A DNA stretch of 32,000 nucleotides from Propionibacteriaceae bacterium (GCA_031256725.1 JAIRQE010000024.1:1-32000), one strand, 5' to 3'; positions 14,040 to 23,535 are shown, counted from the stretch's first letter. Notes: generated by a model from the letters alone, not told the origin. A program made the numbers and translations.

Positions 14040-15774
14040 TTCGACAACCCCGAACAGGGTGAAGAACAACCGATCTCTGTGGAGTCGAATCCTCGGTGGT
14101 CTTCTCACCATTGGACTGATCATTTCAACCAGTTTTCTCCCCGGAGGAACTCCGAATTCTGCCCATGCTGAGGTCGATTCTGAAGCCAAAGTCACGGCCA
14201 TTACCCCAACCTCGGGACTCGTGGCAGGAGAGAACACTGTCACCATCACAGGCGAGGGATTCACCCAATCGCCTCGCTTCGTCACCGTGGACTATCTTCA
14301 ATTTGAGGAGAAAGGCGGAGCTTGGCCCACCATCAACACCAAGATTGAGATGACCTCAACAACCCGTCTCAACCTCGATTTCTCTATTCCTACTGACCTC
14401 TCCATCACCCATGTTGTCTTCTCATCGGGTGGATCATCAGAAATGAGGCTCTACATTGCTTCCCTCAATGCCTACTGGATGTATGGCTCAGGAACCATGA
14501 ACCTCGGCTATAAACCGATCGCTGATACCCCCACCAACACCCAGATCGGCAACGGATCCATTATCTGGAAGGGAAACACCCACGCGTACACACCATCTGG
14601 GTCAACTGGCTCATCGATCAAGATTGGTGGCGGAGCATCAGACAGTTTCAGCGGGAAGATCTTCGGCTTCAAGATTCACTCCGGGGCGAACGTAGCCCAG
14701 TTCATGGGCGTACCCACCTTTGATGCAAAGAACCAAGAATACGGGCTGCTGGATTCCGTCACCGGGGTCTTCTTGGGGAACTCTAACACCGGAGGCACGA
14801 TCACTGGCCCACCAGATTTCCAGCCACCATCACCTCCCCTAGCCTTCTATTTCACGAGTACGACAGACCCCGCGCAAAGCGCCGCGTGTACGAACATCAC
14901 CGTCGTGAACTCAACGACAGCGACCTGTGTCACACCATCATCGCCCTTGCGTCCAATCCGCTCAGGTATGGCCATAGTCTCCACCAAACCAGGGCCAGTG
15001 AACTCAGATTCAGTCACCTACGACTATCTGGGTGTGAAACCCACCATTTCTACGATCTCACCCGTGGAGGGCCCCATCAAAGGCGGTGGATCATGCGTGG
15101 TAACTGGACAGAATTTCGTCACACCTGTAGACAGCGCGGTAATCAACGGACTGGTCTTCATCGGCAACTTCGCAACATGGACAGAGAATGACCGCTCAGT
15201 TGTTGGGCTCTTCGACCCTAACTCGGGGCTTATGCAATCCTTCCCCTCGTCCCCAGATACTTGGGCAGTGATCAATGGGGCAAGGTACGACGCTCCCCCA
15301 ACGGAACTCTGGTTCGGCGACAAGAAGGCGACGGGAATCACGGTGAAAAACCTCACCACGTTGAACTGTGCCCAGATCCCAGCACATGATGCAGGGAACG
15401 CTGATCTCTCCCTCATTGTCGACGGTACACCCAGCGACCTCAAGAAAAACGGGTACACCTACCGCGCCCCTGGAGTATTGAAAGTCGAGAAACAGGGGTA
15501 CCTCTGCCCATCAGGCGTACAGGACCCCGAGCATCTATCCGAGTGCATTCTCATGGAAACAAATCACGCTATCATTAAAGGTGAGGCCATCGCATGGCTC
15601 TACTTGACAACCTATGTGGAGAAGAATACCAATGGTGACTCTGTGAACATTGGTGCCCCCGGACTCACGGATGTGGTGGTGACCGACGACAAAGAGGGCG
15701 AAGTCTGCAAGATCCCCAACCTCACAGTGAACGAACCCTACCCATGCATCGCTCGGGGAGTGCCAGGAATCTAA
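14032..15774 (+). CDS. Large secreted protein with IPT/TIG domains and a concanavalin/LamG-like lectin region (putative adhesin)
   Basis: AAAGGA lies 8 nt upstream of ATG 14032. The signal peptide is MANSTTPNRVKNNRSLWSRILGGLLTIGLIISTSFLPGGTPNSAHA-EV. IPT/TIG-like units are KVTAITPTSGLVAGENTVTITGEGF and KPTISTISPVEGPIKGGGSCVVTGQNF. The middle part ...SFSGKIFGFKIHSG... is LamG-like. Confidence 0.8.
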   Translation: MANSTTPNRVKNNRSLWSRILGGLLTIGLIISTSFLPGGTPNSAHAEVDSEAKVTAITPTSGLVAGENTVTITGEGFTQSPRFVTVDYLQFEEKGGAWPTINTKIEMTSTTRLNLDFSIPTDLSITHVVFSSGGSSEMRLYIASLNAYWMYGSGTMNLGYKPIADTPTNTQIGNGSIIWKGNTHAYTPSGSTGSSIKIGGGASDSFSGKIFGFKIHSGANVAQFMGVPTFDAKNQEYGLLDSVTGVFLGNSNTGGTITGPPDFQPPSPPLAFYFTSTTDPAQSAACTNITVVNSTTATCVTPSSPLRPIRSGMAIVSTKPGPVNSDSVTYDYLGVKPTISTISPVEGPIKGGGSCVVTGQNFVTPVDSAVINGLVFIGNFATWTENDRSVVGLFDPNSGLMQSFPSSPDTWAVINGARYDAPPTELWFGDKKATGITVKNLTTLNCAQIPAHDAGNADLSLIVDGTPSDLKKNGYTYRAPGVLKVEKQGYLCPSGVQDPEHLSECILMETNHAIIKGEAIAWLYLTTYVEKNTNGDSVNIGAPGLTDVVVTDDKEGEVCKIPNLTVNEPYPCIARGVPGI

Positions 15775-16434: not shown

Positions 16435-17193
16435 CTAGCTGCTGAGTACAATCCTCGTGAACAGCGAATCGAGTTCCTCCCATCCGGGGTTGGGTTCACC
16501 TGGAAGGGCTGCAATTCGAGAATCAAGAATTGGAAGAGTTGTCTCAATGTGCTGGTTGAGAGCCTCAATTCTGGGTACCTTCTTCTTCTCAGGAGTATTG
16601 ACTTTGGCCTCAAGCAGGGCCTCAGTGTTGGCCGTCAGATTGGCGTCGGCTTGCGCGGAAACTAGATCAGCAAAAAGAACTGGCGGTGGAGTCTTCCGAT
16701 CAAGTATCCATTGGCAAGCAAGAATAGGGCGCAAGACATACAGATACTTCTTGAGTGTGACAGTGTCCCCTCGAAGATGTTCACGATAGTTGCCTGCAGC
16801 CATACTGAAATAGTGGTGAAGTGCCGATTTTGCCTGAAAGTACAACGCACTCACCTCGCGTACCCACTCCCACTCAGTGGTGGTGCGATAGATGACTGGG
16901 GAGTTCATCCACTCGAATAGGGTCGGATTCGAGCCCCGCATTAACCTCAGGGTCTTATCAAGATCCCATCCATTAATATCAAGAACCTCATCTAATTGCC
17001 ACTCAATGACATCCCGTGTCTTTCCGAGTCGCCAGTAGAAATCTGGCTTACGTACATAGATAAAACGTACGTCATAATCACTGTCCGGGGAGGCAAAACC
17101 CCAAGCTCGCGAACCTGATTCAACAGCATGAAGGATACGGACCGACTCATTGGTCTCAATCTCTGTCAACTTCTCTGCAATAATTTCCAGCAT
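16435..17193 (-). CDS. Nucleotidyltransferase-domain protein (Pol-beta superfamily, PF10127/YcgL-like)
   Basis: 252 aa. ILHAVESGSRAWGFASPDSDYDVRFIYV carries the GS...D.D nucleotidyltransferase motif typical of this family. Confidence 0.8.
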   Translation of the reverse strand: MLEIIAEKLTEIETNESVRILHAVESGSRAWGFASPDSDYDVRFIYVRKPDFYWRLGKTRDVIEWQLDEVLDINGWDLDKTLRLMRGSNPTLFEWMNSPVIYRTTTEWEWVREVSALYFQAKSALHHYFSMAAGNYREHLRGDTVTLKKYLYVLRPILACQWILDRKTPPPVLFADLVSAQADANLTANTEALLEAKVNTPEKKKVPRIEALNQHIETTLPILDSRIAALPGEPNPGWEELDSLFTRIVLSS

Positions 17194-17444
17194 CTCTTTA
17201 GTCTAATAGCCCGCCCACCCACGAGAAGGTTCATGACGTTGTCTGGCAAAAGGTGATCTATGGAATCTGGGGCAACCAGTGACTCACCAAACCACGGTCC
17301 ATTATTGAGGCTGCACCCGAAGAACTCCAAGGACTTTACGAGGCAATCCTTCTCTCGTTGATACGTCCCCTGACACCTCCTCGCAGTGATGAGACATTGA
17401 GGGTGCAAGCAGTACCACCGAGTACACTTCCTCACGAGGTGCCC

Positions 17445-18251
17445 ATGGGAGTCACCCGGATTGGAATGAAGATGATTGTTGCCCCTATGACTGGCCCTTG
17501 GGCTGTACTCGTCTTGGTGATGGCTGTGACTGGAGTCACAATCCACTTCGTATTCCGCAAGCGTGAACGCGATGTCAGACGCCGAGCACTCCTCATCTTT
17601 GCGCTAGTCAACCTGGGGTTCTCCATCACCTTCCACCTGACTTATATGATCAGCCCACCACCTGAGGGCTTCCCAATCTTCCAGAATCTTCCCCTACATC
17701 TGTGTACCCTCATGAGTTGGTTGATGCCGTTCGCAGTGTGGTTCGACTGGCGGCCACTGCGGGCAGTCATCTTCTTCCCTGGCGCTCTCGCTGGGATGGC
17801 AGCATTGTTTTCTGCCGCCCCATCGTATTGGTACTATGGACTCTTTGACCTTCACACCTTCTTCTGGGTCAGCCATGGTTTCAACGCGGTCATCCCCTTC
17901 CTTCTAGCCTCCCTCCAGTTGTACCGGCCGAAGCTCATTGAGGCTGCTCTTGCTGCCTTGTACATCTTCATTGCTGCGCTGCTAATCCTCCCGATCACAC
18001 TGATCTTCCGGGCTTGGGTGGACCCTGGTACGAACTACTTCTATGTCTTCGACCCCGAGGGCGCTGTCGTCCTAGAGTTCTTCAAGAACCTCATCCCACT
18101 CCCAGTCATCTACCTGATCCCACTACTGATCGTGGCTATTCCCGTCATGATGGGCCAGTACGGAATCTACCGCCTAGCGAACCGAAGCCATCTCTCCAAA
18201 GAGACCTTGACCGAAACTATTGAAGCAACCGCCGACGCTACTTCCGCTTAG
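17445..18251 (+). CDS. Polytopic integral membrane protein (TIGR02206/YwaF-like)
   Basis: About 7 hydrophobic segments. LPLHLCTLMSWLMPFAVW is the conserved 'LPLHLC' motif of this family. Start uncertain (17445-17487); the 17358 extension is not membrane-like. Confidence 0.6.
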   Translation: MGVTRIGMKMIVAPMTGPWAVLVLVMAVTGVTIHFVFRKRERDVRRRALLIFALVNLGFSITFHLTYMISPPPEGFPIFQNLPLHLCTLMSWLMPFAVWFDWRPLRAVIFFPGALAGMAALFSAAPSYWYYGLFDLHTFFWVSHGFNAVIPFLLASLQLYRPKLIEAALAALYIFIAALLILPITLIFRAWVDPGTNYFYVFDPEGAVVLEFFKNLIPLPVIYLIPLLIVAIPVMMGQYGIYRLANRSHLSKETLTETIEATADATSA

Positions 18252-20277
18252 TGTACTCACTCAGGGATCTGGTACGGAGGAAACTCTCGCCCACTATGGC
18301 GTACACCTTCGCAGCCGTTTCTACCTCTGACAAGGGTACATACTCGTCGGGACTGTGGGCTTGGGTGAGGTCCCCAGGACCATAGACGGCTCCGGTGATT
18401 CCTTGTCGGGCGAGCAACTCCACCTCACAGTACCCACGGAATAAGGCCGATTCAGCAGTCGTACCTGTGACTTCATGGTGGGCGCGCTCTAAGCCCTCAG
18501 CGAGAGTGGAATCCTCACCAGCCTGCCATGGGGAGAAGGATTGCTCACACACGAGGTCGGCGTCGATGTCGTTATCTGCGCAGACTTTGGCGAAGATCCG
18601 ACGTACCTCGCTGATGACTTCCTCGATATCCTCGCCTGGGAAAACCTGCCGGTCGAAGGCGATCCGGCAGGTGTCTGGTACGAAGGTGACCCCCACTCCC
18701 CCTTCAATGACACCAAGATTCACGCTGGGATCATGAGGGAAACCAAGTGTGGCTCCAAGCCCGCGCAAGGACTCATGGTACTCCTGGAGTGCAGCCACGA
18801 TTGTGGTCATCTTCACGATGGCATTGTCACCACGTTCAGCCATTCCTGTATGCGATGAGCGCCCTCGTACGACCGCTGTGAACTCTGCCGCACCCTGCAA
18901 GGCCGAGGCCACCTGGAGCGAGGTTGGTTCGCCCACGATTGCCTGAGTGCAGTTCTTGAGGGTACCCGCGTTAATCAGCGCTTGGGTACCCTTGAACCAG
19001 ACTTCCTCATCAATGACTGCGGTGAGCATCAGGCTTCGGTGACGCGGTACCTCGGCTTTGACGATGGCTTCAATAGCGGCCACCATGGCGGCAAGACCGC
19101 CCTTCATGTCACAGGTTCCCCGGCCATAGACCTTGCCATCAATGATCTCCCCACCCAATGGGTCGGTTGTCCACAGGCCCAGATCCCCAATAGCAACCGT
19201 ATCGACATGCCCATTGAACAGCAGGCATTCCTCGGATTCCCCATGCAATACCGCCACAACATTCGGGCGACCAGGTTCGACCTCGTGAAGCTCCACATCA
19301 AGGCCACATCTGGCTAAACGCTCCGCGATCAACTGGGCCGCTTCCCCTTCCCGACCAGGCGGATTCTCGGAGTTGGCGCGTACCAAATCTGTGAGGAAGG
19401 TACCCAAGGCTTGGGAATCCACGAAGTCGGCTGCAGTACGAGGTTCAGTTGGGTGTACAGAACTTGGAAGTGGAGTACCAGAGGTCACCTTTGTGGCAGT
19501 CGCCTTGGTTGAAGGTACTCCCCGGATGGACTTCAACAGGTGGCTGGACAGTTCAATAAAACGGGGATGGGATTGCATCTCCAAACGCCGTGGCCGAGGA
19601 AGATCAACCTCAACTTGGGTGTGAATGCGACCGGGCCTCGGGGTCATGGTCATCACGCGGTCAGAGATGTACACCGCTTCTTCGATGTCGTGGGTGACGA
19701 AGAGTACGGTCAGACGATGGGTCTCCCAGACCTCAGTGAGAAGCTCCTGCATCTCGTGACGGGTCAGAGCATCCAGGGCACCGAAGGGCTCATCCATGAG
19801 CAGGATCTCTGGACGATAGCTCAGTGAACGGGCGAGGGCAACACGCTGCTGCATCCCACCAGAGAGTTGGGCGGGGTAATGATCCTCGAAACCTAGAAGA
19901 CCCACCAATTCCAGATGTTCACGGGCAACCTCACTACGTTGGGTAGCAGTAAGGGGTTCACCACGCAAGGCGAACTCGACATTTTTGCGGGCGGTCAGCC
20001 ATGGCAACAAGGTTGCATGTTGGAAGACCACTCCCCTGTCCCGACCAGGGCCAGTGACTGGTTCCCCGCTCACGATGACTTCACCAGTGGTGGGTTCAGT
20101 CAAACCAGCAATGATCGATAGGAGGGTGGATTTCCCGCAACCGGAGACACCCACCAGGGAGACAAACTCGTTCTCACCCAGGGTGAGATCAATCTCCTCA
20201 AGGGCGCTGACAGATCCGAATCTCTTTGACAGGGATCGAATTTCGACTCTGGGTGTGACAGGATTCGTGCTCATCAT
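18238..20277 (-). CDS. Fusion protein: NitT/TauT-family ABC transporter ATPase (N-terminal) plus M20 (ArgE/DapE/ACY1/CPG2) metallo-amidohydrolase (C-terminal)
   Basis: Residues 1 to about 255 carry Walker A GVSGCGKST, signature LSGGMQQRV and Walker B ILLMDEPFGALD. After a P/T/S-rich linker come the M20 motifs LLFNGHVDTV and GRGTCDMKGG, plus the dimerisation-lid region. It is a single uninterrupted 679-aa frame. Confidence 0.85.
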   Translation of the reverse strand: MMSTNPVTPRVEIRSLSKRFGSVSALEEIDLTLGENEFVSLVGVSGCGKSTLLSIIAGLTEPTTGEVIVSGEPVTGPGRDRGVVFQHATLLPWLTARKNVEFALRGEPLTATQRSEVAREHLELVGLLGFEDHYPAQLSGGMQQRVALARSLSYRPEILLMDEPFGALDALTRHEMQELLTEVWETHRLTVLFVTHDIEEAVYISDRVMTMTPRPGRIHTQVEVDLPRPRRLEMQSHPRFIELSSHLLKSIRGVPSTKATATKVTSGTPLPSSVHPTEPRTAADFVDSQALGTFLTDLVRANSENPPGREGEAAQLIAERLARCGLDVELHEVEPGRPNVVAVLHGESEECLLFNGHVDTVAIGDLGLWTTDPLGGEIIDGKVYGRGTCDMKGGLAAMVAAIEAIVKAEVPRHRSLMLTAVIDEEVWFKGTQALINAGTLKNCTQAIVGEPTSLQVASALQGAAEFTAVVRGRSSHTGMAERGDNAIVKMTTIVAALQEYHESLRGLGATLGFPHDPSVNLGVIEGGVGVTFVPDTCRIAFDRQVFPGEDIEEVISEVRRIFAKVCADNDIDADLVCEQSFSPWQAGEDSTLAEGLERAHHEVTGTTAESALFRGYCEVELLARQGITGAVYGPGDLTQAHSPDEYVPLSEVETAAKVYAIVGESFLRTRSLSEYTKRK

Positions 20278-21068
20278 CGTACCTTCTCGTAACGGAAAAG
20301 CATACGACCAATAGCCCTCATGATTTGGTCGAAGATCAACCCGAGGAGACCCAGGACCACCAGGTACCCGATGATGGTGTCTGTGGCGAAATAACGTTGG
20401 GCAACGGTGATTCGATACCCCATACCGCCACTGGCGGCGACCAGTTCAGCGACGACCAGCCAGGTCCAGGCCCATCCGAGGGTGATCCTCAAAGTGTCGA
20501 AGATCCGGGGCCACGCGGCGGGGAAAACGATCCTTGCGAGGATCTGGTGGCGTTTCATTCCCAGGGTTTCACCCAGGTGGATCATGGATTGGGGTACCTG
20601 ATGGACGGCATCGGTGATCATGAGCACCTGCTGGAAGAAGGTACCCATCCAGATGATGGCGAACTTCTGTGAATCACCTGTCCCCACCCAGAGGATCGAC
20701 AGTGGCACAAAGGCAACCACTGGCATATAACGGACAAAGTCGAAGAGAGGTTCCAACCCTGCTCGGATCCTTGCGGACATCCCCATGAAGGGGCCGATCG
20801 CCAGGGCCATCACAGTGGCGAGGAGGTACCCGATGGTGATCCGATAGACGGACAACCCAATGTCGCTCCACAGTTCACCATTCTTGGCTCTGACCACCAG
20901 GGAACCGATGACATCCCCAGGGCTGGGAAGGAACAGACTGGGAACAAGTCCGGCTGCGGTGACCGCAAACCAGACCAGCCCCAATACTGTGAAGGTTCCA
21001 AGTGTGATGACCAGATACTGACGTCTGGAGATCTTGGCCCGTACCCGGGAACCTCTGTTCGACACCAC
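20274..21068 (-). CDS. ABC transporter permease (NitT/TauT family)
   Basis: 264 aa with about 6 TM segments and the EAA-like loop LGETLGMKRHQILARIVFPAAWP. Its stop overlaps the ATPase start (ATGA). Confidence 0.85.
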   Translation of the reverse strand: MVSNRGSRVRAKISRRQYLVITLGTFTVLGLVWFAVTAAGLVPSLFLPSPGDVIGSLVVRAKNGELWSDIGLSVYRITIGYLLATVMALAIGPFMGMSARIRAGLEPLFDFVRYMPVVAFVPLSILWVGTGDSQKFAIIWMGTFFQQVLMITDAVHQVPQSMIHLGETLGMKRHQILARIVFPAAWPRIFDTLRITLGWAWTWLVVAELVAASGGMGYRITVAQRYFATDTIIGYLVVLGLLGLIFDQIMRAIGRMLFRYEKVR

Positions 21069-21073
21069 GTTCC

Positions 21074-22057
21074 TTAGCTGAGGTACTGTGCGTCGATCGC
21101 TTGATCAGGATCGGCAGAACCACTCAACAAACCAGCGGTGACTGCAACCTCTTTGACCGCAGGGAGGGTGGCCGTACGATACTCGCCATCCAACAAGCGC
21201 TGGTTGTCGGAGAGACTGTAGAAGATCACACCATCGAAGGCAGTGACAAGATCTGCAGGATCCTCACCAACACCACGGGCGATGATGGCGCGACCATCCT
21301 CAACATTGGCGTTGTAATAGTCAACGGCCTGACCCCAGGATGCGATGAGTGCCTTCACAGCATCAGCGTTCTCGGCAGCAAACTTGTCGGAAACCATCAA
21401 TACATCCGAGATGAGACCCTGCTTGGCGCTCGCATCATAGATGACATGCATGTCTGAGTTCTCAGCCAAGGCGGAGGTGATATAGGGCTCATAGGTCACT
21501 GCGGCAGGTACCTGACCAGCAATCACAGCAGCACCAGCATTAGCTGCACCCATGGGCACCTTCTCAATGTCAGTGATCGTCATCCCAGCCTCAGCCAGTG
21601 CATAGTTCAATAGGAGATCGGAGGTTGCGCCCTCTTCATAGGCGACCTTCTTGCCTTTCAGATCGGCGACTGTTGTGATCTCACTCGTGGTGATAATGGC
21701 ATCGGCCGATGTGGCAGCGTCCTCAAGAAGTACGATCTTGGCTTCGACTCCAGATTCGATCATCAGTAGCGCCCCATGGGAGGCAACATTGAGAGCATCA
21801 ACTCGGCCACCAGCCAAAGCAGCCAACATATCGGCATCAGCCTCGAAGTCGGTCAACGTAACATCCAACCCATTCTCGGCGAAGAAGCCCTTCTCTTGGG
21901 CAATGTACCAGGCTCCATATCCCAGCCATGGTTGAATAGCAATTGACACCTTCGTCAAGCCTTCATCCTCAGTCTTGTCATCAGCGGTAGTACATCCACC
22001 CATGAATCCAGTAGCCAAGAGAGCTAAAGAAATCAACATAACCTTGGGCATGCGCAT
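21074..22057 (-). CDS. ABC transporter substrate-binding lipoprotein (NMT1/THI5-like, NitT/TauT family)
   Basis: Lipobox LLATGFMGG-C. KVSIAIQPWLGYGAWYIAQEKGFFAENGLDVTLTDF is typical of NMT1/SsuA/TauA/ThiY-type binding proteins. Confidence 0.85.
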   Translation of the reverse strand: MRMPKVMLISLALLATGFMGGCTTADDKTEDEGLTKVSIAIQPWLGYGAWYIAQEKGFFAENGLDVTLTDFEADADMLAALAGGRVDALNVASHGALLMIESGVEAKIVLLEDAATSADAIITTSEITTVADLKGKKVAYEEGATSDLLLNYALAEAGMTITDIEKVPMGAANAGAAVIAGQVPAAVTYEPYITSALAENSDMHVIYDASAKQGLISDVLMVSDKFAAENADAVKALIASWGQAVDYYNANVEDGRAIIARGVGEDPADLVTAFDGVIFYSLSDNQRLLDGEYRTATLPAVKEVAVTAGLLSGSADPDQAIDAQYLS

Positions 22058-22220
22058 ATCGCGGCACCTTTCTTTGTAAGTTCAGGTGATAAACCTAGCT
22101 AAGTTATGTTACGAAACATTGACGATAGTGACGATGGTGAATTCCTCGTCCTGGGCTACCATGAGAACCTGGTTCAGTTTGCTCTGCACCCCACCATCCA
22201 TCTTGGAGGACATCGCTTTT

Positions 22221-23450
22221 ATGTTCGGTACACCTGAAGTCCTAGCTCCCGCCGGCAATCCGGAACGTTTGGATGCTGCCATTCGCTATGGCGCGAATGC
22301 GGTCTACCTTGCGGGAAGACAGTACGGTTTGCGCTCTGCTGCTGGGAACTTTGATGACGAGCAATTAGCTCAAGCAGTGAGTACTGCCCACGCACATGGG
22401 GTTCATGTCTACATCACCTGCAATACTCTTCCACGCGATGATGAGTTGGATGGACTCCCGGCGACCATGGAGTACTGGCAAGAGATCGGAGTCGACGCCA
22501 TCATTGTGGCTGACCTGGGGGTCTTGAACCTGGCCAAGCACCATGCACCTCAGTGCGCGATCCATATGTCCACACAAACTGGCATTGTCAATAGCCTCAC
22601 AGCGCGAGAGTTGCATGACATGGGGGCCTCCCGGGTGGTACTTGCTCGCGAGTTGTCCATGGACGAGATCGCCGGGATTCGCGAACGTACCCCGCCAGAA
22701 CTCGAACTGGAAGCCTTCGTACACGGGTCAATGTGTATGGCCGTCTCAGGGCGCTGCATGATGTCGGCTGCCATGACGAACCGTGACGCCAACCGCGGCA
22801 ATTGCACCCAGCCCTGTCGATGGAGTTACACCATCGTCGAAGAGAAACGTCCAGGGCAATACATGAGTGTCGAGGAGGATGCCTCCGGTACCTATATCTT
22901 TAACGCTGAGGACCTCAATATGGTTGAGCATCTGTCTGCCCTCACAAGAGCTGGGGTTACCTCCTTCAAAATCGAGGGACGCGCCAAATCACCCTTCTAT
23001 GTTGCCGTCATCACCAACGCCTATCGCGTGGCGGTCGACGGCCTAGTTGCCTCAGGTTTCGACCCAGACTACCGACCCGCCCCCTGGGTCATTGAGGAAC
23101 TCAACAAGGTCTCCCATCGCCCCTATGGCACAGGTTTCTTCTTCGGCCCACCTTCCCAGTCAACCAATTTCGGAGGGTACGTACGCGACTACTCTCTCGC
23201 CGCAGTTGTTGAAGGCTGGGCCGATGGGAGGTTGTACCTCACTCAGCGCAACAGATTCCTGGCAGGCCAAGCCTTGGAGGTGCTCCTGCCTGGGCGAGAA
23301 CCCGTGTGCTTGATGGCCGAGGATCTGCGTGACGGAGACGGCGAACCTATCGATGCTGCACGCCACCCCATGATGCCAGCCTCCATCCGCTCTGGTACGA
23401 GCCTGCCGCCGGGAAGTTTTGTACGTATGGAGATGGCGAAATCTCGATAG
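22221..23450 (+). CDS. Peptidase U32 family protein
   Basis: GGAGGA lies 10 nt upstream of ATG 22221. The product reads MFGTPEVLAPAGNPERLDAAIRYGANAVYLAG..., ...AIHMSTQ... and EAFVHGSMCMAVSGRCMMS, which is the U32 signature region. Confidence 0.85.
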   Translation: MFGTPEVLAPAGNPERLDAAIRYGANAVYLAGRQYGLRSAAGNFDDEQLAQAVSTAHAHGVHVYITCNTLPRDDELDGLPATMEYWQEIGVDAIIVADLGVLNLAKHHAPQCAIHMSTQTGIVNSLTARELHDMGASRVVLARELSMDEIAGIRERTPPELELEAFVHGSMCMAVSGRCMMSAAMTNRDANRGNCTQPCRWSYTIVEEKRPGQYMSVEEDASGTYIFNAEDLNMVEHLSALTRAGVTSFKIEGRAKSPFYVAVITNAYRVAVDGLVASGFDPDYRPAPWVIEELNKVSHRPYGTGFFFGPPSQSTNFGGYVRDYSLAAVVEGWADGRLYLTQRNRFLAGQALEVLLPGREPVCLMAEDLRDGDGEPIDAARHPMMPASIRSGTSLPPGSFVRMEMAKSR

Positions 23451-23535
23451 GATGAAGATGCGCAGTCCATGGGTACGCTTGAAGACGCGCAGGTCCATCG
23501 TGGAAAAGGATCGGATCACGAGCTAGTCTAAGATC

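Follow-up and report, generated by a model that had tools for sequence, protein, structure and literature searches.

Related Transporter and Hydrolase Systems

ATP-binding cassette (ABC) importers of the NitT/TauT type are paired with M20 deacylases in the ThiXYZ and YlmB system of Bacillus, where a substrate-binding protein (SBP) of the NMT1/THI5 fold serves the importer and the deacylase acts on the imported amide. The same families meet in an operon on the minus strand at positions 18238-22057 of a 32,000-nucleotide stretch of DNA from a Propionibacteriaceae bacterium (GCA_031256725.1, JAIRQE010000024.1:1-32000; the whole stretch is termed the window), in which the importer ATPase and a complete M20 amidohydrolase form one polypeptide of 679 amino acids. 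ThiXYZ and YlmB are separate proteins under thiamine regulation, whereas the window operon is fused and carries no thiamine pyrophosphate (TPP) riboswitch, as is also the case for 17 related loci; ThiY is only a remote relative of the window SBP (E = 2e-4), and no TenA partner was found at the window.

An extension of the ATPase at its C terminus by a whole extra domain occurs within the same ATPase family in NrtC and CmpC of the cyanobacterial nitrate and bicarbonate importers (PMC10945777, PMC13287603), indicating that large additions at this end are tolerated in NitT/TauT ATPases. The extra domain of NrtC and CmpC is a regulatory ligand-binding module related to the binding protein, whereas the window protein has in its place an entire metallo-amidohydrolase whose active site is intact. 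SsuABC and TauABC share the three-component organization with the window operon and are the best-scoring families for all three of its transporter parts; however, only the window SBP reaches a cut-off, marginally and at the subfamily level, no desulfonating enzymes lie near the window operon, and SsuABC and TauABC do not have the amidohydrolase partner that is present here. ArgE and DapE (TIGR01910) resemble the M20 part in fold, dimerization lid, metal ligands and catalytic glutamate, but the window M20 falls below their equivalog cut-offs and belongs to a distinct ortholog group that has conserved residues of its own and is always associated with a transporter.

In the system for N-acetyltaurine utilization, NaaS/NaaABB'CC', the importer genes adjoin that of an amidohydrolase cleaving the N-acylated cargo (PMC4334477). 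The likeness to the window is one of concept, an ABC importer of a small N-acylated molecule being encoded beside its amidohydrolase, whereas the Naa transporter is of an ABC class with two permeases and two ATPases, its components are separate proteins and it has a dedicated metallochaperone; the difference in transporter architecture leads us to reject Naa as a homolog of the window system. A hydrolase covalently fused to an ABC transporter and processing the cargo in transit is also known from the peptidase-containing ABC transporters, in which a C39 cysteine peptidase that cleaves leader peptides is fused to the transmembrane subunit. Those transporters are exporters, whereas the window system is an importer with a metallo-amidohydrolase placed on its ATPase.

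ABC importer ATPases are known with regulatory C-terminal domains, and a full amidohydrolase on one of them is what is new here; a limited literature search found no description of an importer ATPase carrying a complete catabolic enzyme. It appears rather probable from sequence comparison that the operon encodes a self-contained import-and-cleave module, composed of an SBP of the NMT1/SsuA fold, a TauC-like permease and a NitT/TauT ATPase carrying the M20 domain; the neighborhoods of orthologous M20 genes point, weakly, to a histidine-family solute rather than to formylaminopyrimidine (FAMP), the solute of the thiamine salvage precedent.

Architecture of the Operon and the Fused Protein

Three tightly packed open reading frames (ORFs) on the minus strand make up the operon. 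The SBP gene (21074-22057) encodes 327 amino acids with an NMT1/THI5-like fold (Pfam NMT1, 2.6e-24; NMT1_2, 1.6e-21), and the N terminus MRMPKVMLISLALLATGFMGGC (…LLATGFMGGC) is lipoprotein-like, marking the product as a probable lipoprotein. Its stop codon is separated by 5 nucleotides from the start of the gene for a TauC/SsuC-like permease of 264 amino acids (20274-21068; Pfam BPD_transp_1, 2.8e-23), and the permease stop in turn overlaps the ATPase start in the sequence ATGA. The third gene (18238-20277) is the single ORF of the ABC ATPase, linker and M20 fusion.

The NitT/TauT-type ATPase domain comprises residues 1-262 (19492-20277, minus strand) and is followed by a linker of roughly 30 residues rich in Pro, Thr and Ser (residues 253-283; 19429-19521, minus strand; GVPSTKATATKVTSGTPLPSSVHPTEPRTAA), after which the M20 domain of the ArgE/DapE subfamily extends over residues 285-679 (18241-19425, minus strand) and includes the dimerization lid at residues 459-567. 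Pfam matches along the chain are ABC_tran at residues 26-165 (E = 2.3e-31), Peptidase_M20 at 353-660 (E = 1e-29) and M20_dimer at 459-567. All six ABC motifs were located in order within the ATPase domain, namely Walker A (residues 43-51), the Q-loop (84-93), the signature LSGGMQQR (138-145), Walker B (158-165), the D-loop (166-169) and the H-loop (194-197), and the M20 domain contains the motifs NGHVDTV (355-361) and GRGTCDMKGG (385-394).

Against the NCBIfam models the ATPase part misses every cut-off, with 256.4 bits for NtrCD (cut-off 291.8), 239.5 for TauB (357), 218.5 for SsuB (395) and 238.1 for SaoA (360), and by these scores is assignable to the NitT/TauT group only, with no named specificity. 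The M20 part passes TIGR01910 with 279.9 bits (cut-off 217.6), matching positions 3-373 of the 373 in the model, and is under every DapE/ArgE equivalog cut-off (AcOrn-deacetyl, 206 versus 297.7; PRK08651.1-2, 195.3 versus 381; PRK08588, 193.1 versus 289). Alignment to Haemophilus influenzae DapE (PDB code 5vo3) and Escherichia coli ArgE (PDB code 7rsf) identifies His-357, Asp-390, Glu-424/Glu-425, Glu-450 and His-641 as the metal and catalytic motifs, and these residues, together with the ABC motif columns, are invariant across 11 fused homologs.

An earlier note on this DNA had described a three-gene operon for an NMT1/THI5-like lipoprotein, a permease and a NitT/TauT ATPase, which the ORFs, Pfam and NCBIfam bear out, and an uninterrupted frame of 679 amino acids containing a complete ATPase, a P/T/S-rich linker and a complete M20 domain, which stands in every particular. 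The absence of M20 metal ligands, named there as an observation that would tell against the proposal, is not seen, all of them being present on alignment with the DapE and ArgE structures.

Reality and Distribution of the Fusion

The fusion is not an assembly artifact, as is clear from an identical contig in a Logan assembly and from the same in-frame fusion in 12 other contigs. The Logan contig SRR14710887_49237 (L167; 8670 bp, run SRR14710887) is 100% identical to window positions 17149-25818, covering the whole operon, and it matches base for base the frame across 19400-19550, the region in which the earlier note had placed the junction of the domains. Inspection of the DNA of every fetched locus showed ATPase and M20 in a single frame, with no stop between them, at the window operon and at 12 further distinct loci. 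Among 5.8 billion proteins searched there were 11 full-length or near-full-length fused homologs on separate contigs with 62-75% identity, showing that the architecture first noted in this one genome recurs in others. The linkers of the fused proteins range from 22 to 48 amino acids, cannot be aligned among one another and have no counterpart in unfused relatives.

Where a source name is given, the fused homologs belong to bins of Propionibacteriaceae, Bifidobacteriaceae and Micrococcales, and isolate labels such as Nt197P3bin90 correspond to published sets of metagenome-assembled genomes from termite guts (PMC7024585). The fusion is confined to one clade, the named members of which are termite-gut actinobacterial bins. 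In a library of 1.84 billion protein representatives clustered at 50% identity a single representative (P0002) spans both domains in one stretch, and no further fusion of the ATPase-M20 kind occurs among the best 150 matches in that library. In the unfused actinobacterial loci L003, L013, L015 and L022 the same genes are present in the same order with a stop between ATPase and M20. A neighbor-joining tree, which carries no support values, groups the fused M20 domains as one clade with the M20 domains of these four loci and of L014, where the contig starts with the M20 gene, as its sister. With a single fused clade on the tree, the fusion looks like a single, old event.

One of the 12 further fused loci, on a Micrococcales-labeled contig from a termite gut (L088:8001-9146, the same contig as L164:10001-11989) has a fused gene with a premature stop inside the M20 part, called as a 487-amino acid product and a 138-amino acid M20 fragment, which reflects either a pseudogene or a sequencing error.

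Transporter-Hydrolase Pairing in Unfused Operons

The gene order SBP, permease, ATPase and M20 is found unfused in Propionibacteriaceae, in a Desulfosarcina metagenome-assembled genome (L021) and in three Sporolactobacillus species (L025-L027), and Cohnella (L024) has the same order with one gene, hisD, inserted. That sister Actinobacteria and three other lineages keep the same four functions side by side in an identical order argues for a functional link between transporter and M20 enzyme, and the Rosetta-stone logic of the earlier note holds in that what is fused here is encoded elsewhere by adjacent separate genes. By gene content and order the link is conserved far outside the fused clade. 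Flanking genes vary from locus to locus, which argues for the cassette being autonomous, and several of its copies adjoin tRNA genes of varied identity.

A scan of GTDB species genomes and JGI metagenomes, made with an M20 alignment, shows the ortholog group to be sharply bounded, with 44-72% identity to the window M20 inside the group and 39% or less for the next relatives. Comparison of 44 orthologous M20 domains reveals 85 near-invariant positions, 21 of them specific to the group. The group-specific residues include the acidic Glu-465, Glu-618 and Glu-620 as well as Gln-544, which replaces an arginine of the next clade, a pattern that would be compatible with a basic rather than a dicarboxylate substrate. 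Outside Actinobacteria the M20 orthologs are not always beside an ABC system, and the other transporters adjoining them are an SSS symporter (MctP/PanF-like), a GPH/MFS_2 symporter and an NCS1 permease. The fusion and the conserved unfused operon together firmly link an uncharacterized M20 group, spread over at least four phyla, to uptake by four transporter families.

Neighboring Genes and the Candidate Substrate

A census of the neighbors of the orthologous M20 genes shows Histidinol_dh genes to be the commonest companions outside Actinobacteria, occurring in five lineages and at six of the 16 non-redundant loci. In Cohnella the copy sits within the operon and carries a canonical HisD loop (GTAAY), and the HisD-like copies of Clostridia, Formimonas and Sporolactobacillus have the loop sequences GGYPL, GLHPL or GRYPL. 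All of these neighbors retain the HisD-type Asp-Tyr and Glu…His residues, and one of them scores about equally against the Brucella HisD and HpsN structures. In HpsN the loop is G-R-Y-A/S-H, ending in the sulfonate-binding His-126, and Lys-353 follows a metal-binding Asp (PMC11382572). Both His-126 and Lys-353 are absent from the HisD-like neighbors, which have Asp-Tyr in place of Asp-Lys, and a role for them in the degradation of 2,3-dihydroxypropane-1-sulfonate or cysteinolate was rejected on these grounds. We regard them, from their loop and active-site residues, as a putative uncharacterized HisD-like subfamily, in which a GxYPL-type loop (GGYPL/GLHPL/GRYPL) replaces the GSAPL-type loop of HisD and the GRY[AS]H of HpsN, and which always occurs near an M20 ortholog and a transporter. 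Its members are L010:8528-9799, L012:8510-9781, L009:1153-2430, L020:6560-7828, L025:18279-19610, L026, L027 and L090-L093.

Lyases of the histidine ammonia-lyase (HAL) family provide a second connection. In Sporolactobacillus a true HutH (660 bits versus a cut-off of 539) is encoded directly upstream of the SBP gene, and in two clostridial groups HAL-like genes are located about 2.5-6.7 kb from the HisD-like gene. An ergothionase identity for the HAL-like neighbors was discarded, the scores being 274-291 bits to histidine ammonia-lyases versus 148-154 bits to ergothionase. Taken together, the M20 neighborhoods point weakly to an N-acylated imidazole or histidine-family compound as the substrate. 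In our ranking of the candidates a histidine-family N-acyl compound comes first and an N-acyl sulfonate second, with FAMP a distant third. The M20 ortholog group offers a tractable target for finding a new salvage or catabolic route, for which the unstudied histidinol-dehydrogenase subfamily supplies candidate partners.

Other neighbors recur in particular lineages. Pantothenate catabolism was considered on account of PanF-like symporter and 2-hydroxyacid dehydrogenase neighbors, and was set aside as leaving the HisD and HAL neighbors unexplained. A D-isomer-specific 2-hydroxyacid dehydrogenase is near the M20 ortholog in four lineages (L016:1412-2413, L019:4653-5705, L027:18621-19634 and L028:4223-5224), of which L016 is a contig of the fused clade. 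In two distant Firmicutes (L012:363-5778 and L020:12505-19528) a PrdR-like sigma-54 activator and a betaine-type BCCT transporter lie beside the HisD-like/M20 module; next comes a HAL-like lyase in the Clostridium, and an MttB-like methyltransferase and an M20-like protein of 553 amino acids in Formimonas. These neighborhoods may belong to a quaternary-amine pathway, conceivably for histidine betaine. In L096:8001-13483 and in L097 the genes after the M20 ortholog encode a DUF2889-like protein, an NCS1 permease, YqeC and a MobA-like protein. Such genes accompany selenium-dependent molybdenum hydroxylases in an accessory role, which hints at a connection with the degradation of N-heterocycles or purines in that lineage.

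Proposed Import-and-Cleave Mechanism

In the proposed mechanism the lipoprotein SBP would hand a small amide-containing solute to a dimer of the TauC-like permease, which would be energized by two copies of the NitT/TauT-type ATPase, each bearing, at the end of a flexible linker some 30 residues long, a di-metal M20 amidohydrolase predicted to be catalytically competent. ABC importers have two ATPase subunits, and ArgE/DapE enzymes dimerize through the lid domain, which together lead us to infer one M20 dimer under each transporter: the two fusion chains would bring two M20 protomers together, allowing a lid-mediated dimer to form. On emerging from the permease an N-acyl compound would be hydrolyzed to the free amine and a carboxylic acid, and the fusion would fix enzyme and transporter at a 1:1 ratio and might keep the uncleaved solute in the cytoplasm low. 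The fusion itself probably arose once, when the stop codon separating neighboring ATPase and M20 genes in an older operon of four genes was lost, and it has been kept through divergence to 62% identity. Both fused domains and the SBP are soluble and open to assay.

A speculative extension, which we consider rather unlikely, is that the M20 dimer acts as a C-terminal clasp of the ATPase dimer and that occupancy of the hydrolase gates ATP hydrolysis, giving a form of group translocation or product feedback, with the whole system salvaging an undescribed N-acylated metabolite of the histidine or histidinol type that gut communities exchange and the GxYPL paralogs performing a second step in Firmicutes. 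If so, no ABC importer with catalysis built in would have been described before this one.

Evidence against the Proposed Reading and Alternative Explanations

Several observations weigh against the histidine-family module outlined above. A HisD or HAL neighbor is missing from all actinobacterial loci, whether fused or unfused, and it is Firmicutes and other phyla that supply the histidine lead, with an M20 just 45-56% identical to that of the window. The binding proteins of those loci, where present, are only 32-45% identical to the window SBP, falling to only 32-35% for the ABC cassettes linked to HisD or HutH. SBP, permease and ATPase all score best against sulfonate and taurine families. 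The searchable literature yielded no N-acyl-histidinol metabolite and nothing pertinent on a cluster of HisD, M20 and ABC genes. An AlphaFold2 model of the full fusion from an 11-sequence alignment (mean predicted local distance difference test (pLDDT) score 65, predicted TM-score 0.58) has low confidence over most of residues 232-277 (pLDDT <50 at 232-259 and 271-277) and cannot support a fold comparison or an assessment of how the domains pack, leaving the dimer geometry as inferred only.

The alternative that survives best, although we judge it unlikely, is the uptake and deacylation of an N-acylated sulfonate, resembling N-acetyltaurine or an N-acyl-cysteate, as a source of sulfur, carbon or nitrogen. 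It draws on the transporter components, since the SBP passes the NCBIfam SsuA_fam cut-off (TIGR01728; 167.5 versus 163.5 bits), a marginal pass at the subfamily level, and its best solved relative is SsuA (PDB code 2x26; 3e-17, 66 bits), followed by PDB codes 3qsl and 3e4r, TauA, THI13/THI5 and, last, ThiY. The permease is nearest to TauC (151 bits) and then SaoP (146 bits), reaching the cut-off of neither, and the ATPase is nearest to TauB, SsuB and SaoA; the pairing of an amidohydrolase with an ABC transporter is moreover precedented by the Naa system for N-acetyltaurine (PMC4334477). Against this, every equivalog cut-off is missed by a wide margin and the Naa transporter, with its two permeases and two ATPases, is built differently. 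Desulfonation genes are absent from the gene tables and family scans of the examined loci and from the families shown in the census, with no SsuD- or TauD-type enzymes seen in the window or the related gene tables, and the His and Lys with which HpsN binds sulfonate, its defining residues, are missing from the HisD-like neighbors.

Salvage of the thiamine pyrimidine, in which the transporter would import FAMP like ThiXYZ and the fused M20 would deformylate it like YlmB, was the specific proposal of the earlier note and is now very unlikely. In its favor, an M20 deacylase, a NitT/TauT ABC system and an NMT1-like binding protein are also what the precedent is built from; the remote PDB matches of the SBP include THI5/THI13 and ThiY; and SSS and NCS1, to which the predicted pyrimidine transporters ThiV and CytX belong, are among the transporter families adjoining orthologous M20 genes. 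ThiY (PDB code 3ix1; 23.8 bits, E = 2e-4) is, however, the weakest of nine PDB matches to the SBP, against 3e-17 for SsuA, so that of the three proteins with which the earlier note had suggested comparison (ThiY, SsuA and TauA) SsuA is nearest and orthology with ThiY is not borne out. Thiamine genes are usually riboswitch-controlled in Bacillales and Clostridia, and neither a TPP riboswitch nor a T-box was found in the 17 related loci, which include members of both. For the window the earlier note had raised the possibility of a TPP riboswitch at 22058-22220, and none is present at either the gathering or a permissive threshold: Rfam reports only the tmRNA and a tRNA over the whole window at the gathering threshold, and at E <= 10 on 21900-22400 it reports chance snoRNA matches only. 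The 5' leader, estimated at about 35-45 nucleotides, would also be too short for an aptamer.

No tenA or thi genes were seen among the annotated ORFs of the window, in the gene tables of related contigs or in the 25 commonest families of the 125 neighbors, the recurring neighbors being HisD-like and HAL-like genes instead. No model bearing the name YlmB is among the best 25 NCBIfam matches. Overall, the evidence does not support the thiamine reading. What stands of the earlier interpretation is the fusion and the coupling of transporter and M20, without the specific assignment to FAMP, YlmB and ThiY, and the reading that still fits is the second possibility it offered, uptake of some other N-acylated compound.

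Two further explanations concern the M20 domain itself, and both are most improbable. An ordinary biosynthetic DapE or ArgE joined to a transporter gene by accident, in a pairing without meaning, would accord with the DapE- and ArgE-named proteins being the top PDB matches and with the fusion of adjacent genes being capable of neutrality, but the M20 part is under every DapE/ArgE equivalog cut-off, in distant phyla an unfused M20 gene comes after the same set of transporter genes, its ortholog group has 21 specific residues of its own, and both domains stay intact down to 62% identity. A non-catalytic M20, serving only as a C-terminal dimerization or ligand-sensing domain in the manner of the regulatory domains of MalK, MetN and NrtC, would be in keeping with the C-terminal regulatory domains common in importer ATPases and with the fused ligand-binding domain of NrtC/CmpC in the NitT/TauT family, but every fused homolog keeps all five metal ligands and the catalytic Glu unchanged, which argues for a retained active site, and 85 positions are near-invariant across the ortholog group. 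The M20 domain might serve in sensing in addition to catalysis.

Upstream Region and Genomic Surroundings

The divergent gene upstream of the SBP encodes a U32 peptidase. The mechanical ORF (22086-23450, plus strand) begins at GTG 22086, 28 nucleotides from the SBP start, and ATG 22221 as the start fits the gene call of 409 amino acids on the identical Logan contig and the Pfam match, which results in an intergenic region of 163 nucleotides (22058-22220). This region probably holds the promoter, is without a riboswitch and includes the Shine-Dalgarno-like sequence AAAGAAAGG preceding the ATG. Comparison by eye of the 220 nucleotides 5' of the SBP gene in 10 related loci showed as the sole common feature a -10-like hexamer about 35-45 nucleotides before the start codon; a small palindrome at 22092-22105 is not conserved among these loci, and a promoter and terminator scan of 17800-22500 gave nothing exceeding the expectation from shuffled sequence.

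The flanks of the window are unrelated to the histidine lead and encode a TMEM164-family membrane protein, RlaP, a PNPOx-like protein, the U32 peptidase, a tRNA-His, KDPG aldolase and an Opp system. The tRNA-His(GTG) gene (24259-24334, plus strand) is 2.2 kb from the operon, and it was dismissed as a clue to histidine and taken as a probable coincidence because cassettes elsewhere adjoin tRNAs for other amino acids (Ile, Arg, Pro, Gly, Val and Met), the cassette in L005 being flanked on both sides by tRNA-Arg and tRNA-Pro. The L164 cassette is surrounded by toxin-antitoxin and defense-type genes. Such surroundings suggest that the cassette sits in variable, possibly mobile, regions. The G+C content is 0.565-0.572 across window positions 18001-21000 versus about 0.50-0.54 in both flanks, and the higher value in the cassette is compatible with horizontal acquisition.

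Farther away, a run of ORFs on the plus strand at 10414-15774, most of them with no Pfam match, includes an S26 signal peptidase-like protein (12679-13251) and a TIG-domain protein of 614 amino acids (13930-15774), and may represent a locus for the assembly of a surface structure. The tmRNA gene is located at 1873-2241 on the plus strand and encodes the tag peptide ANDVRTNFALAA.

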